Virus record (IMG/VR): IMGVR_UViG_2541047680_000007
Source of the DNA: a virus
Lineage: Duplodnaviria > Heunggongvirae > Uroviricota > Caudoviricetes
Reading direction: 5' to 3' (one strand)
DNA: 21,502 nucleotides
This document shows positions 698 through 8,676 of this stretch, one piece after another (positions within the stretch are counted from its first letter, which is position 1; the number at the start of each line of letters is the position of its first letter). Under the pieces are notes generated by a model, which searched no databases, was not told where the DNA came from, and was given only the letters and a program-made list of their open reading frames with translations. A program made the position numbers and the translations under genes.

Positions 698-3255
698 CGT
701 CCACCTCCGGAGAACAGGCCACCATCACGCATCTGTGTCTGAATTTCATCACGGGCACCCTTGCGGGCCATGTCATACACCGCCTTCATCATCTGTGGAC
801 CTGGCAGACCATTCGTACCGTCGTTCTGAATCACCACGTGATTGTTCTGATTAAAATTAATGCCTTCAGCCCGCCGCATCTGCGCCGGACTTCCGGCACC
901 GCCCACATAACCACCTTCCGCATAGCCCCGCATTAGGCGGTACAGGTTGCCGACACCAATCCGGCTGGTTGCCTCCTTCGTGAAGACAAACTCACCACGG
1001 TGAACAATCCCCGCTGGCTCATATTTGCCGCCGGTTCCCGTAAATCCTCCGGTTGCAAAATGGAATTTCGCCGCAGCGGCCTGAATGGCTGTACCGCCTG
1101 ACGCGGATGCGCCGCCACCAACAGCCCCGCCAATGGCGCTGCCGATACTCCCGACAATCCCCACCATTGCCTGCTTAAGCAGAATTTCTGTCATCATGGA
1201 CAGCACGGAACGGGTGAAGCTTCGCCAGTTCTGCTCACTGCCGGTCAGCATCGCCGCCATATTATGCGCAATACCATCAAAGGTCTGCGTGGCAGCACTT
1301 TTAACCTGCGACATACTGTCCGTGGCGCTCTCTTCCCACTCACTCCAGCCGGACTTCAGGCCTGCCATCCAGCTCCCGCGAAGCTGGTCTTCAGCCGCCC
1401 AGGTCTTTTTCTGCTCTGACATGACGTTATTCAGCGCCAGCGGATTATCGCCATACTGTTCCTTCAGACGCTGTTCCGTAGCTTCCCACGCTGCCTGCCG
1501 CTCAGTCAGCCCCCGGCTTTTCGCATCAATGGCGGCCCGTTTTGCCCGTTGCTGCTGTGCGAATTTATCCGCCTGCTGTACCAGTTCGTTCAGCCGTTTC
1601 TGGTGTTCAATCTTATCGCCAAGTTCAGCCAGCTGGCGTTTGTACTCCAGCGTCTCATCTTTATGCGCCAGCAGGGATTTCTCCTGTGCAGACAGCTGGC
1701 GACGTTGCGCCGCCTCCTCCAGTACCGCGAACTGACTCTCCGCCTTCCACAAATCCCGGCGCTGCTGGCTGATTTTCTCATTTGCTCCGGCATGCTTCTC
1801 CAGCGTCCGGAGTTCTGCCTGAAGCGTCAGCAGGGCAGCATGAGCACTGTCTTCCTGACGATCGCCCGCAGACACCTTCACGCCGGACTGTTTCGGCTTT
1901 TTCAGCGTCGCTTCATAATCCTTTTTCGCTGCCGCCATCAGCGTGTTGTAATCCGCCTGCAGGATTTTCCCGTCTTTCAGTGCCTTGTTCAGTTCTTCCT
2001 GACGGACGGTATATTTCTCCAGCGGCGTCTGCAGCCGTTCGTAAGCCTTCTGCGCCTCTTCGGTATATTTCAGCCGTGACGCTTCGGTATCGCTCTGCTG
2101 CTGCGCATTTTTGTCCTGTTGAGTCTGCTGCTCAGTCTTCTTTCGGGCGGCTTCAAGCGCAAGACGGGCCTTTTCACGATCATCCCAGTAACGCGCCCGC
2201 GCTTCATCGTTAACAAAATAATCATCCTTGCGCAGATTCCAGATGTCGTCTGCTTTCTTAAACGCAGCCTCTGCCTTAATCAGCATCTCCTGCGCGGTAT
2301 CAGGACGACCAATATCCAGCACCGCATCCCACATGGATTTGAATGCCCGCGCAGTCCTGTCTGCCCAGGTCTCCAGCGTGCCCATGTTCTCTTTCAGGCG
2401 GCGGGTCTGGTCATCAAACCCTTTCGTTGCGGCCTCGTTCGCCGCCTGCAATGCCCCGGCTTCATCGCCGGAACGCTGCAACTGAGCAACATACGCAATC
2501 TGCTCCGCCGTCACGTTATGGAACTGGCGCGCCATCGCCGTCAGCCCCGACGTCGGGTCAGTGGTCAGCTTCCCGAAGGCTTCAGCGACCTTGTCCACCT
2601 CCACACCGGATGCAGAGGAGAAACGCGCCACACTCTGGCTGATGGACGCAATCTGAGCCTCACCGCTTACCCCCGCCTTAACCAGTGCACTGAGTGACTC
2701 GCTGGTCTGGTTAAACGTCAGCCCTGCCGCCTGCCCGGCTCTGGACAGGACCAGCATACGATCTGCCGTCAGACCCGACTGATTACCGGAAAGGACCAGC
2801 GTTTTGTTGAAATCGGACAGGGTTGAGTTACCCTGATACCAGGCATACGCCAGCGCACCGGTCGCCACCGCCAGCGAGGTGGCCCCGACCATCGGCAGGG
2901 TGATCGCACCGGCAAGCCCCCGGAACATGGGGATCATCCCGCCGAAGGAGTCCTTAACCTGACCACCCTGTTGCAGCAGGATCAGCCACGGGCTTTGCCC
3001 GCCTGCAAGCTGCGTGGCCACGTCGGTGAACTGTGCAGGCAGCATACGCATGGCGGCTTTATACTGCCCGACGGAAATCCCCGCTTTCTGTGCAGCCAGC
3101 GCCTGTCGGCTCAGCGACTGTTCAACGACTGCCGCTGTTTTTTTCGCATCAGTTTCCGTACCGGAAAAATGACGCCTGACTCTGGCCATCTGCTCGTCAA
3201 ATCTGGCCGCATCCAGACTCAAATCAACGACCAGATCGCCTACCGGTTCAGCCAT
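694..3255 (-). CDS. H: Tail tape measure protein
   Basis: 853-aa ORF, the same length as lambda gpH. Long coiled-coil Q/A/E/K-rich centre and glycine-rich C-terminal region; N-terminus MAEPVGDLVVDLSLDAARFDEQ matches remembered lambda H. Confidence 0.93.
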   Translation of the reverse strand: MAEPVGDLVVDLSLDAARFDEQMARVRRHFSGTETDAKKTAAVVEQSLSRQALAAQKAGISVGQYKAAMRMLPAQFTDVATQLAGGQSPWLILLQQGGQVKDSFGGMIPMFRGLAGAITLPMVGATSLAVATGALAYAWYQGNSTLSDFNKTLVLSGNQSGLTADRMLVLSRAGQAAGLTFNQTSESLSALVKAGVSGEAQIASISQSVARFSSASGVEVDKVAEAFGKLTTDPTSGLTAMARQFHNVTAEQIAYVAQLQRSGDEAGALQAANEAATKGFDDQTRRLKENMGTLETWADRTARAFKSMWDAVLDIGRPDTAQEMLIKAEAAFKKADDIWNLRKDDYFVNDEARARYWDDREKARLALEAARKKTEQQTQQDKNAQQQSDTEASRLKYTEEAQKAYERLQTPLEKYTVRQEELNKALKDGKILQADYNTLMAAAKKDYEATLKKPKQSGVKVSAGDRQEDSAHAALLTLQAELRTLEKHAGANEKISQQRRDLWKAESQFAVLEEAAQRRQLSAQEKSLLAHKDETLEYKRQLAELGDKIEHQKRLNELVQQADKFAQQQRAKRAAIDAKSRGLTERQAAWEATEQRLKEQYGDNPLALNNVMSEQKKTWAAEDQLRGSWMAGLKSGWSEWEESATDSMSQVKSAATQTFDGIAHNMAAMLTGSEQNWRSFTRSVLSMMTEILLKQAMVGIVGSIGSAIGGAVGGGASASGGTAIQAAAAKFHFATGGFTGTGGKYEPAGIVHRGEFVFTKEATSRIGVGNLYRLMRGYAEGGYVGGAGSPAQMRRAEGINFNQNNHVVIQNDGTNGLPGPQMMKAVYDMARKGARDEIQTQMRDGGLFSGGGR

Positions 3256-5245: not shown

Positions 5246-5820
5246 CGCTTTATTACCATTCTCAGTTGATGCTGCAGCGCATAGTCCAGCTCTTTCGGAA
5301 GACGTTCACGCCGTATCCGCTCAATATTCTGTTTAAACGCCGTGGTCAGCGGCACCGCCATCGGGATTTTCACCACATCAATGGGGTAACGGTTTTTCCC
5401 GGCCACACGCTGCATGACATGCCACCGGCCATTTTTCAGTTGCTGAATAAACGCGCCGGGAATACGACGGTTTCCCGCCACAAGCACGCTGCCGCCACCT
5501 TTCAGGGATGAACGCTGCCCCTTTTTACGACGCCTGCGTCGGGACAGGACAACCCGCGCGTTACCCAGCTTGATTACGGGCAAATCCCCCCGGTTAACTT
5601 TGATTCTGGCCTGCGGATTTTTGACCGTGGCCCTTTTCAGCCTGGCCCTTTCCTTTACCAGTTTCCGGCGTACCTTTGTCTCACGGGCAACCTGTGACGC
5701 AGACTGCGATATCGCGGATGACGCAACGCGGTTAATGGCCATTGCGGCGGCACCAGGCACTGCCGTTTTGCTGATACGGCTGAGGTTTTCAACGGCCTGC
5801 TCAAGACCTTTTATGGCCAT
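5242..5820 (-). CDS. Z: Tail completion protein Z
   Basis: Track ORF 5242..5886 trimmed to the internal ATG at 5820..5818 (MAIKGLEQAVENLSRISK...), giving 192 aa like lambda gpZ. The 22 codons upstream overlap FII and are probably not translated. Confidence 0.85.
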   Translation of the reverse strand: MAIKGLEQAVENLSRISKTAVPGAAAMAINRVASSAISQSASQVARETKVRRKLVKERARLKRATVKNPQARIKVNRGDLPVIKLGNARVVLSRRRRRKKGQRSSLKGGGSVLVAGNRRIPGAFIQQLKNGRWHVMQRVAGKNRYPIDVVKIPMAVPLTTAFKQNIERIRRERLPKELDYALQHQLRMVIKR

Positions 5821-5831
5821 ACATCCCCCTT

Positions 5832-6185
5832 TCAGCGGCGACGGCTGGCGGCAGGTGGTTGCCCCCGGTTGAGCCAGAGATAACAACTCCCTCCGTCATC
5901 CGGAGAAACACGGTCCACCCAGAACATCTCGCCGTTAATGGTCAGCGTGTCACCACGCCGTACAGCACAAACCGTATCCGTAAGCACAAATAATGACGGG
6001 TTACTTCCTTCAATACGGATCCCACTACTGGCAAAACCCAGCGACTCCGGATCGTCAAAAACGCCATGAACCTCGCCGCCACGCTGTGCACCGGAGGTGA
6101 ACTGCGCACTGATGCCCATCACTTCAACAATCGTACTGTCCACCCCGGCAAGGGCGGCATCAAAGGCATTCTGAAAATCACGCAT
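5832..6185 (-). CDS. FII: Head-tail joining protein FII
   Basis: Trimmed to ATG 6185..6183 (MRDFQNAFDAAL...), 117 aa as in lambda FII. C-terminal motif FWVDRVSPDDGGSC...RRR is shared with lambda FII while the N-terminal part diverges. Confidence 0.8.
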   Translation of the reverse strand: MRDFQNAFDAALAGVDSTIVEVMGISAQFTSGAQRGGEVHGVFDDPESLGFASSGIRIEGSNPSLFVLTDTVCAVRRGDTLTINGEMFWVDRVSPDDGGSCYLWLNRGQPPAASRRR

Positions 6186-6603: not shown

Positions 6604-7632
6604 TTATTTCACCTGTACCACCACAAACTCATCCGGGTCCGGCAACACCATCAGCGGCGCGGACTGCGTCATGGTAAATTCACGGGCGGGATCCCCTACC
6701 GTCAGCCAGTGTTTCGGATAACGGGAAGAGGCCACCACACCTTCGGACAACGCCTGAGCATCCTGAATGGCACCGTAACAACGGATCCCATCTGCAGCAG
6801 TATTCCCCAGAACCAGCATGCCATCTGGAAGATAACGTTTTTCGATACCGTCTTCTGCTATATAAGACGTTTTCGCCACCACAATGGCCAGATCGCCGTA
6901 ATACCCCTTGAAGGACACCACTGCGCCCAGATCTTTCACTGCCGTTTCGAGTTGAGAATTTGAACCGCGACGGGTATCCAGTTTTTCGCGGAACAGCTTA
7001 AAACCATTCAGAAGACGCCAGACGGTACCGTCCATAATGGCAATATTCACAAGACCGCTGGCCAGGTCGCAGTAGAGGTCAATATCATGTGTAGGATCGA
7101 ACGTGTCACGATCCTGTTTTGACCACTCCTTACCACTACCCTGAGTGATGTTATTCTTCGTCGACCTGCCAAAATCGACCTCAATTTTCTCGAACTGGTC
7201 TCCTTCCATGGTGTATTTGCCATACAACACAGCATTTACCGCCTGCATTTCTTCCACCTGGACAATCGCGTGCTCTTCCTGTTTGAGGTTATCGGTAATG
7301 ATACGCAGACGGCGGTAAGCCGGATCATTCAGTTGAGATGGATCTTCACCAGGAAGGCGCTCAACCGCCTGCTGGTAATTAAATTCGTGTTTCGGCTTGA
7401 CGTAGCCCGGACGCAACACGCGGGTTTCACCACCACGATGACGCAGCACTTTTCCTTCAACAACCGGGGAGACATAGGCCGCCACCGGCGTTTTTCCGGT
7501 AATTTTGTCCAGCATCACCTCTTCGGTATGGAAATTCACCGTACGGCGGAAAAACAGCTCCAGAAACAGCGCACGAAATTTAACTTTTTGTTCGGTATAA
7601 CCGAGTAACTGGCGGGTCGTAAACAATCCCAT
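6604..7632 (-). CDS. E: Major capsid protein
   Basis: 342-aa ORF (lambda gpE is 341 aa). Conserved blocks RGG, PGYVKPKHE, DPAYRR, VEEMQAV, GKYTM, NNITQ, EWSK, LDTRRGSNS, LETAVKDLG, TGDPAREFTM, QSAPLM, ADPDEFV match remembered lambda gpE, roughly 55-60% identity by eye. Confidence 0.92.
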   Translation of the reverse strand: MGLFTTRQLLGYTEQKVKFRALFLELFFRRTVNFHTEEVMLDKITGKTPVAAYVSPVVEGKVLRHRGGETRVLRPGYVKPKHEFNYQQAVERLPGEDPSQLNDPAYRRLRIITDNLKQEEHAIVQVEEMQAVNAVLYGKYTMEGDQFEKIEVDFGRSTKNNITQGSGKEWSKQDRDTFDPTHDIDLYCDLASGLVNIAIMDGTVWRLLNGFKLFREKLDTRRGSNSQLETAVKDLGAVVSFKGYYGDLAIVVAKTSYIAEDGIEKRYLPDGMLVLGNTAADGIRCYGAIQDAQALSEGVVASSRYPKHWLTVGDPAREFTMTQSAPLMVLPDPDEFVVVQVK

Positions 7633-7689: not shown

Positions 7690-8037
7690 TTACGGCAGCG
7701 CCGCGTGACTCAGGGCACTGCCAGCAAAGGCGTTGGCCTTTTTGTGTTCATCCACACTTTCAGGCCAGTGGATTGCCTCCGTCGCAAAGGTTCCCGACTT
7801 GTAATACGTCAGCGCCGTCTCTGTGCCTTCAAGCGGCAGTACCAGTATGCCAACCGCACTACCGGCTTTCTGTCCGTCCCAGACCACCAGTTTCCCGGTG
7901 GCTTCATCCAGCATCAGGGGCGTCAGTGCCGGTGTTGGCGAGGAAATCCCGCTGCTGCCTGTGGCGGTATGAGCCGGATCATTACCGGCAAAAATACGTA
8001 CTTCCGCACGCTGTTCAGTGATGGTTTTCGTCACCAT
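7690..8037 (-). CDS. D: Capsid decoration protein D
   Basis: 115-aa ORF with motifs DPAHTAT, TPLMLD, KLV.WDG, AVGIL, YKSGTF, WPE, AFAG matching remembered lambda gpD, in the lambda D position. Confidence 0.85.
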   Translation of the reverse strand: MVTKTITEQRAEVRIFAGNDPAHTATGSSGISSPTPALTPLMLDEATGKLVVWDGQKAGSAVGILVLPLEGTETALTYYKSGTFATEAIHWPESVDEHKKANAFAGSALSHAALP

Positions 8038-8073: not shown

Positions 8074-8676
8074 TCATGGCATGGCCATGAGCATTTTCAC
8101 GTCCGCATCACCGTCTGCTGACGTCTGTGCCACGCCACCCTGTACCGCTGCCGGTGAATGGTTCGCCATGAAATGTTCAAACATGGCGGTTGTGGATGCA
8201 GAGACCGGTTCTGCCTTACCTGATCCCGCAGCCAGCACAGCCCGGGCGCTCTCCACTGTCATTCCCGGGCAGGCAGCCAGCTGTTCAGCCTGCGCCTCAG
8301 CCCCTTTTGCCTCATCCAGTGCCATGATCTGATCACGGAGTGATGGTCCGGCATCCGCCTGCGGTGAAGCAGCCAGGATCGGGCGGGCTTTTTCCACCGT
8401 CATCTCCGGCATCGCCGCCAGCGTTGCCGCCAGTTGTTCACGACCGTTCGCTTCTTCACACACCATAATGCGATCGGCTTCACTCTGCGTGGATGCCACC
8501 GGCTGCTGCGGTGCCGCCGCGGCCAGAATCGCCCGGGCCTGTTCAACGCTCATGCCCTGTTGTCCTGCCAGCATCGTGGCAAGCTGTTCACGTCCTTTCG
8601 CTTCCTGGCATGTCAGGATCCCCATCACTCGCTGGTTCTCCTGCGCGGCGGCTTCCGTTGCAGTTAATTGCGGCAT
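8074..8676 (-). CDS. Nu3: Scaffolding protein Nu3-like, in-frame nested gene within the 3' part of C
   Basis: Internal ATG at 8676..8674 is preceded by a strong Shine-Dalgarno GAGGAGG at 5-nt spacing (minus strand AGAGGAGGCACTATGCCGCAA...). This gives a 200-aa in-frame product, about the size of lambda Nu3, which is likewise nested in C. Confidence 0.65.
   Translation of the reverse strand: MPQLTATEAAAQENQRVMGILTCQEAKGREQLATMLAGQQGMSVEQARAILAAAAPQQPVASTQSEADRIMVCEEANGREQLAATLAAMPEMTVEKARPILAASPQADAGPSLRDQIMALDEAKGAEAQAEQLAACPGMTVESARAVLAAGSGKAEPVSASTTAMFEHFMANHSPAAVQGGVAQTSADGDADVKMLMAMP

Follow-up and report, generated by a model that had tools for sequence, protein, structure and literature searches.

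Judged by its sequence, the region at positions 8074 to 8676 of a 21,502-nt stretch of viral DNA (the whole of which is called the window here) is gene 6 of a phage 21 prophage, a Nu3-type internal scaffold of the lambda-type head. Its product, gp6, is quite probably a scaffold of three protein-binding beads on flexible linkers that is made from an internal translation start within the protease gene. Neither the nested gene nor its three repeats are new, as annotation of gene 6 with its Tri boxes goes back to the 1990s; the original prediction, made from the letters alone, is thus a correct rediscovery of annotated features.

The gene 5/gene 6 locus and its internal start

A 501-aa open reading frame was found at 8074..9579 on the minus strand, with an upstream GTG start at 9579. 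A megablast search of phage genomes matched all 1506 nt of it to coliphage 21 (M81255.1 and OL657228.1) at 100% identity, and many other E. coli phages matched it at 95–100%. Similarly, a query of viral contigs with gp5 returned copies that were 97–100% identical and nothing more distant. Gene 5 of M81255.1 is exactly this ORF, and the nested, in-frame Nu3-like gene that had been proposed inside the protease gene agrees base for base with phage 21 gene 6. In fact, the sequence, the nested CDS coordinates, and the three repeats are the same in M81255.1 and OL657228.1, with no difference in the gene. The M81255.1 record dates from the 1990s, and its annotation presumably comes from Smith & Feiss, Gene 1993. 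It gives both gp5 and gp6 the product name "head-tail preconnector" and places three repeat_region features in gene 6, the "Tri1 box", "Tri box", and "Tri3 box", described as "function unknown; putative". The complete genome of 2021, OL657228.1, names the two products "capsid protease/scaffolding protein" and "scaffolding protein". No paper on the Tri boxes or on the head genes of phage 21 came up in the literature collection that was searched. The features of the locus are:

9569..11161, minus strand: gene 4, portal protein, lambda B homologue, adjoining gene 5 upstream and overlapping it (annotation of M81255.1 and OL657228.1)
8074..9579, minus strand: gene 5, S49 head maturation protease with a C-terminal scaffolding region, lambda gpC homologue (phrog_53, E 1.7e-228)
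8701..9144 (gp5 residues 146–293), minus strand: Peptidase_S49 catalytic domain (Pfam PF01343, E 3.7e-35)
8681..8687, minus strand: internal Shine-Dalgarno sequence GAGGAGG, 4 bases upstream of the gene 6 ATG (RBS in M81255.1, as putative, and in OL657228.1)
8074..8676, minus strand: gene 6, nested in-frame 200-aa Nu3-type scaffolding protein, co-C-terminal with gp5 (CDS 5475..6077 of M81255.1)
7690..8037, minus strand: shp, head decoration protein, lambda D homologue, directly downstream of gene 5 (ORF list, M81255.1, OL657228.1)
6604..7632, minus strand: gene 7, major capsid protein, lambda E homologue and presumed scaffold partner (ORF list, M81255.1, OL657228.1)

Gene 5 sits between the portal gene and the decoration and major capsid genes, as is the case for lambda C/Nu3-type nested genes. 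The NCBIfam model SppA_dom also matches the S49 region of gp5, with a score under its cut-off, and Pfam finds nothing significant in gp5 past the S49 domain (residues 146–293). From the PHROG collection, phrog_8399 (head scaffolding protein) matches the gene 6 region three times; "head scaffolding protein" and "capsid assembly protein" families likewise match the box region three times.

Unlike phage 21 itself, this prophage copy has a large-terminase gene that is interrupted by an IS66-family element. The 2699-bp insertion (13078–15776) encodes a 523-aa transposase with DDE_Tnp_IS66, zf-IS66, and LZ_Tnp_IS66 domains, alongside an HTH_Tnp_1 ORF. Its target duplications, at 13070–13077 and 15777–15784, represent an 8-bp duplication of phage 21 nt 908–915, and the sequence on either side matches phage 21 at 100% identity. 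With its terminase interrupted in this way, the prophage is expected to have lost DNA packaging. Window position 16691 corresponds to nt 1 of phage 21, its left cohesive end, and the sequence runs 4.8 kb further, so the window comes from a prophage or circular form rather than from virion DNA. The best overall matches to the window are the prophage-derived PhiR63_2 and PhiR57_1 (99% identity, 86% coverage).

Both parts of the proposed internal start are present as they were originally read, with GAGGAGG at 8687..8681 and the in-frame ATG at 8676..8674, opening a 200-aa product that begins MPQLTA. On comparison, the arrangement GGAGG-4nt-ATG was found to be kept in lambda, N15, phi80, Gifsy-1, and phage 21. 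The residues around this conserved start differ (SGGRM, IGGTM, TGGTM, and RGGTM), and the first Gly codon is always GGA, which is a rare codon in E. coli. A four-box E. coli prophage lineage, described below, has a different Shine-Dalgarno sequence, AAGGAG, ahead of its ATG. These features speak against the idea that gp6 is a proteolytic fragment of gp5, or is never made, and that the SD-like sequence is a by-product of Gly-Gly codons. The fixed 4-nt spacing has held in five phages despite the differing neighbour residues, the rare GGA serves as the first Gly codon in all four of the Gly-Gly cases, and the four-box lineage reaches its internal ATG through AAGGAG, not GGAGG. Moreover, lambda is known to start Nu3 internally within C, so that the two genes overlap (Shaw & Murialdo 1980, cited in PMC8508860), and the by-product idea is accordingly very improbable. 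Considering the lambda homology and the conserved start signal together, we infer that gp6 is expressed from the internal start in phage 21.

Lambda records disagree on where C and Nu3 start. In the lambda isolate OR974322.1 (locus L083, 1147–1752), nu3 is annotated at 201 aa and the C gene at 426 aa; the SD-preceded lambda ATG that matches the phage 21, N15, and Gifsy-1 starts would give a product of 131 aa.

The Tri box as a repeated protein module

The region shared by gp5 and gp6 consists of three boxes, each detected with a profile HMM, and a tail:

8506..8640 (gp5 314–358), minus strand: Tri box 1, of ancestral type, with a 3-residue "VMG" extension (69 bits; overlaps the GenBank "Tri1 box")
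8359..8481 (gp5 367–407), minus strand: Tri box 2 (73 bits; overlaps the GenBank "Tri box")
8224..8340 (gp5 414–452), minus strand: Tri box 3 (66 bits; overlaps the GenBank "Tri3 box")
8077..8223, minus strand: shared gp5/gp6 C-terminal tail of 49 aa (AlphaFold2 model of gp6)

The boxes annotated in GenBank map to 8506–8609, 8359–8469, and 8215–8328 of the window. At the protein level, the three tandem repeats of about 40 aa are clearly real. Repeat pairs gave BLOSUM62 local scores of 85–101, against a shuffled mean of 25 (sd 5), with z values of 11.6–16.2, and none of 2000 shuffles attained the observed score. The self dot-plot that had been suggested as a check tells the same story, with protein diagonals scoring 77–89 at offsets of 47, 50, and 97, against 48 for the best shuffled diagonal. 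Since these composition-preserving shuffles never match the observed scores, the objection that the repeats are Ala-rich low-complexity sequence falls away.

The accompanying claim, that the repeats can also be seen in the DNA, holds only weakly. Codon-aligned DNA identity between boxes is 59–66%, compared with 28 ± 5% for random in-frame pairs, and to that extent the claim stands. However, Tandem Repeats Finder reported no array in the DNA, and a DNA repeat search gave solely 15-nt imperfect seeds at a spacing of 150 and 153 nt. Third codon positions are 35–41% identical between boxes, and the longest exact run common to any two phage 21 boxes is 8–9 nt. Such a faint DNA signal shows that the duplication is old and has been maintained by selection on the protein.

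It is scarcely credible, then, that the periodicity reflects an Ala/Glu-rich composition, or a DNA signal such as the CII-type TTGY-N6-TTGY, with no protein domain behind it; the gene 6 region is indeed Ala-rich, and the only two TTGYN6TTGY matches of the window both fall inside gene 6, where OL657228.1 annotates them as CII sites, but the shuffling result, the near-randomised third codon positions beside kept residues (which indicate selection at the protein level), a motif count below the chance expectation, and a confidently predicted fold with invariant core positions in 18 diverse units and 1307 profile matches refute it as far as sequence analysis allows.

The two CII-type matches themselves lie on the plus strand, antisense to gene 6, at 8424–8437 and 8658–8671, and they are the sole two in the 21.5-kb window. 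One of them is a perfect TTGC-N6-TTGC across codons 2–6 of gene 6. Since 2 were found and 4.7 would be expected by chance, their occurrence inside gene 6 is probably a coincidence.

The consensus of 18 diverse boxes, ExDRILAxxEAKGRExLAxxLAAxPGMTVExAxxILAAAP, has invariant small and hydrophobic core positions. From the corresponding 18-box alignment, AlphaFold2 built a single-box model, representing Tri box 1, with a pLDDT of 90.6, a pTM of 0.68, and helices at residues 2–10, 18–25, and 32–41; each Tri box is predicted with confidence to be a three-helix bundle of about 40 residues. The AlphaFold2 model of whole gp6 also has three helices in each box, where blocks reach a pLDDT of about 77–83 (about 77–81 in box 2). 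Linker and tail blocks have a pLDDT of about 42–65, with inter-box residues and much of the tail below 50; confidence is low for most of the final 45 residues. The linkers between boxes are 6–8 residues long and rich in Pro, Ala, and Gln, and the tail has a short, amphipathic predicted helix at gp6 161–172 (AMFEHFMANH), followed by a predicted disordered, acidic and Gly-rich end. With a shallow alignment of 16 sequences, the whole-gp6 model has a pTM of 0.27 and leaves the placement of the boxes relative to each other undefined. This pattern of confident boxes, poorly predicted linkers, and low pTM would fit beads on a string.

No model in Pfam or NCBIfam covers the Tri box. A helix-hairpin-helix assignment (PF00633) was rejected, as it scored 13–15 bits against a cut-off of 24 and did so in box 3 alone. 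A PDB sequence search with gp6 gave a chance match only (E 1.7), and Foldseek searches of the PDB with the whole-gp6 and single-box models gave no significant match. The top structural matches to the single box were staphylococcal protein A domains, GA modules, UBA/CUE domains, and RuvA domain III. Several such three-helix modules also form beads-on-a-string arrays that bind their partners multivalently.

Copy number and stability of the box

When a box profile was searched against 1.84 billion representative proteins (E <= 0.001), it matched 1307 of them. Re-scanning the best 151 of these 1307 found one box in 137 proteins, two boxes in 10, and three boxes in 4. By lineage, the number of boxes is:

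one box: lambda, N15, phi80
three boxes: phage 21, Gifsy-1
four boxes: E. coli prophage lineage with the 538-aa peptidase WP_096934546.1

The comparison of repeat number among C/Nu3 homologues that the original prediction had proposed shows lineages with one, two, three, and four boxes. The single box of lambda scores 65 bits with the box HMM, close to the 66–73 bits of the phage 21 boxes. In full-length single-box S49 proteins, the distance from the end of the box to the C-terminus has a median of 50–51 residues, and a "hydrophobic-x-x-x-hydrophobic-M" motif just past the last box recurs in these proteins together with the tail of about 50 aa. The spacer between the protease and the first box has a median of 53 residues in single-box proteins, compared with 14–15 in multi-box proteins.

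Four distant box-bearing loci have a constant gene order, namely GpA terminase, Phage_portal_2 portal, S49 protease with box, decoration protein, and Phage_cap_E, followed by downstream tail genes that differ among them. The lambda genes for gpC and gpNu3 have the S49 protease, the co-C-terminal in-frame scaffold start, the order B-C/Nu3-D-E, the box, and the tail of about 50 aa in common with phage 21. Lambda differs in having one box, preceded by about 48 Nu3 residues that are absent from phage 21, in a 131-aa product, whereas phage 21 has three boxes, 12 residues ahead of the first, and a 200-aa product. The lambda gpC homologue of the Salmonella prophage Gifsy-1, STM2605 (498 aa), shares the three boxes, their positions, and the start signal with phage 21, although its identity in the scaffold region is about 60%.

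The box has been duplicated independently in several lineages. In the distant S49 protease P0143, the two boxes match each other at 68% identity and the phage 21 boxes at no more than 49%, which marks this duplication as independent. Prophages with WP_096934546.1 have the same architecture and head module as phage 21, and their major capsid protein shares 82% identity with the phage 21 one, but they carry four boxes, of which boxes 2–4 are 79–87% identical with exact DNA runs of up to 21 nt. These three boxes appear by sequence to be a recent expansion. In E. coli O8:H28 BMH-17-0027, where this protein lies at 1598–3214 of locus L089, the internal ATG would open a scaffold of 236 aa. Of 5426 complete E. 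coli genomes, about 105 carry the four-box lineage, which had no record in the phage collection.

Throughout the phage 21 lineage, box 1 has retained the "VMG" extension, which the single box of lambda also has. Orthologous copies of box 1 are 61–92% identical across homologues, and a box mostly resembles its orthologues in other phages more closely than the paralogous boxes of its own phage. The triplication is therefore older than the split between the scaffold genes of phage 21 and Gifsy-1.

The original prediction also held that the tandem repeats are recombination-prone, and this was not borne out. RecA-dependent exchange requires roughly 20–25 bp of identity. The phage 21 boxes have no common exact run above 9 nt, which argues against a recombination-prone gene, and three boxes are present in all 80 close viral contigs. 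Among 5426 complete E. coli genomes, 1870 carry the 603-nt region, and 1864 of these carriers have a place that spans 80% or more of it. Rare variants do occur, including an exact loss of box 2 in P0018, partial deletions of box 2 in P0009 and P0011, and a copy in H134 that is 57 nt shorter. Neither the long exact repeats nor the copy-number polymorphism among close relatives that mark a hypervariable tandem repeat were found. By this evidence from sequence comparison, the phage 21 triplication is old and stable rather than recombination-prone.

A stand-alone protein of 223 aa with two boxes, WP_143201794.1, occurs in Bradyrhizobium sp. NAS96.2 (locus L091, 5001–5672). A stop codon 12 codons 5′ of its start excludes nesting in a protease gene. 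Its neighbours are integrase-side small genes on one side and a tape-measure gene on the other, with nothing recognisable as a portal, protease, or capsid gene close by; the protein could belong to a degraded prophage or a satellite-like element. Two other candidates were rejected, P0106 as a remnant adjoining an IS element and P0177 because it is open upstream to the contig end and is probably nested. P0122, P0123, and P0129, S49 proteins fused to tail proteins, were likewise rejected as new box contexts. In these and in P0099, the S49-and-box protein is joined to minor tail L, tail U, or the tape measure, or is altered by a deletion from the protease C-terminus to box 2. All four probably arose by deletion in decaying prophages or as artefactual chimeras of assembly.

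Possible partners of the box and their bearing on head assembly

A mechanism can be proposed in which ribosomes starting at the GTG at 9579 would make the 501-aa protease gp5, and those starting at the internal SD/ATG (8687–8674) would make the 200-aa gp6, equivalent to the last 200 residues of gp5. The region that the two proteins share would consist of three independently folding three-helix bundles and then a tail of about 50 residues with one amphipathic helix. As the conserved folded core of the scaffold family, the boxes may contact gp7, and possibly each other or the portal, and these contacts would nucleate and shape the procapsid. The shared C-terminal region would also bring the protease gp5 into the shell. 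In lambda, the protease removes the scaffold; the phage 21 protease would similarly degrade it, and it would exit before DNA packaging. With three boxes per chain, the scaffold would be covalently trivalent, and in the phage 21 lineage the boxes would replace most of the long disordered protease-box spacer of single-box proteins.

Work with lambda has shown that Nu3 is essential (PMC10695390), that its two-hybrid partners are E, C, and Nu3 itself, and that it has been described as forming dimers (PMC3224144). The capsid protein is the partner that we infer for the box, in preference to another scaffold molecule or the portal. In its fullest form, the proposal would be that the Tri box is an autonomous three-helix module binding the lambda-type major capsid protein, with copy number (1–4) setting the valency of the scaffold, and in this form it is tentative. 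That repeat number tunes valency, as originally suggested, is plausible on sequence grounds, given that one-, two-, three-, and four-box lineages exist.

A serious alternative is that the single-copy conserved tail, instead of the boxes, serves as the capsid-binding site. In P22 and 80alpha, the capsid-binding element is a helical motif at the extreme C-terminus (summarised in PMC11922011), and the analogy therefore points to the tail rather than to the boxes. The scaffolds of P22 (gp8), 80alpha, and phi29 resemble the Tri-box scaffold functionally, in that a small helical binding element is set in an extended or disordered protein. The P22-type helix-turn-helix coat-binding domain had no sequence or fold match to the Tri box, however, and P22 differs further in having a single two-helix motif at the extreme C-terminus, no protease fusion, and a scaffold that is recycled rather than degraded (see also PMC11922011).

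If the tail binds the capsid, the boxes could conceivably act as self-association modules through which scaffold molecules dimerize or form a network, and three boxes would then yield a cross-linked core with no added capsid sites. The reported Nu3–Nu3 and Nu3–C two-hybrid interactions and the Nu3 dimers (PMC3224144) would accommodate this arrangement, as would the C-terminal location of the P22 and 80alpha elements (PMC11922011, in summary) and the conserved, always single-copy tail of about 50 aa with its short amphipathic motif past the last box. Against it, the boxes are much better conserved than the tail across the family, and the AlphaFold2 model of gp6 (pTM 0.27) has no confident contacts between boxes, so that box self-association is not supported by this model, whose alignment is shallow at 16 sequences. 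A self-association role for the boxes is possible but doubtful.

It is unlikely that the boxes instead bind the portal protein gp4 and, in the sense of the old "preconnector", recruit portal and protease to an initiation complex rather than shape the shell. Such a role would recall the GenBank name of gp5 and gp6, "head-tail preconnector", and the requirement for Nu3 in the incorporation of B into the lambda procapsid (Ray & Murialdo 1975, as tabulated in PMC3224144), and the Phage_portal_2 portal gene does lie directly upstream of the box gene in all four of the distant loci. Yet the box co-occurs just as strictly with Phage_cap_E in those loci, the two-hybrid screen found an interaction of Nu3 with E and none with B (PMC3224144), and in lambda the capsid and scaffold proteins suffice to form shells with no portal present (PMC9295703).

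The finding itself adds nothing new, as it concerns annotated features of a classical phage. What is added is modest, namely a predicted fold for the box, the lack of a curated domain model for it, a single copy as the norm, variants of one to four boxes with independent duplications, and the stability of the repeats. The lambda-type head scaffold is, however, mechanistically far less understood than the scaffolds of P22 or phi29. The Tri box provides three handles on its function, as it is a discrete predicted mini-domain, the universal core of S49-linked scaffolds, and naturally present in one to four copies. These handles permit experiments on scaffold–capsid recognition and valency and could justify a curated domain model. 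If the box does bind the capsid protein and its copies set the valency, the natural series of one to four boxes would provide a test of nucleation and size control of the T=7 shell.
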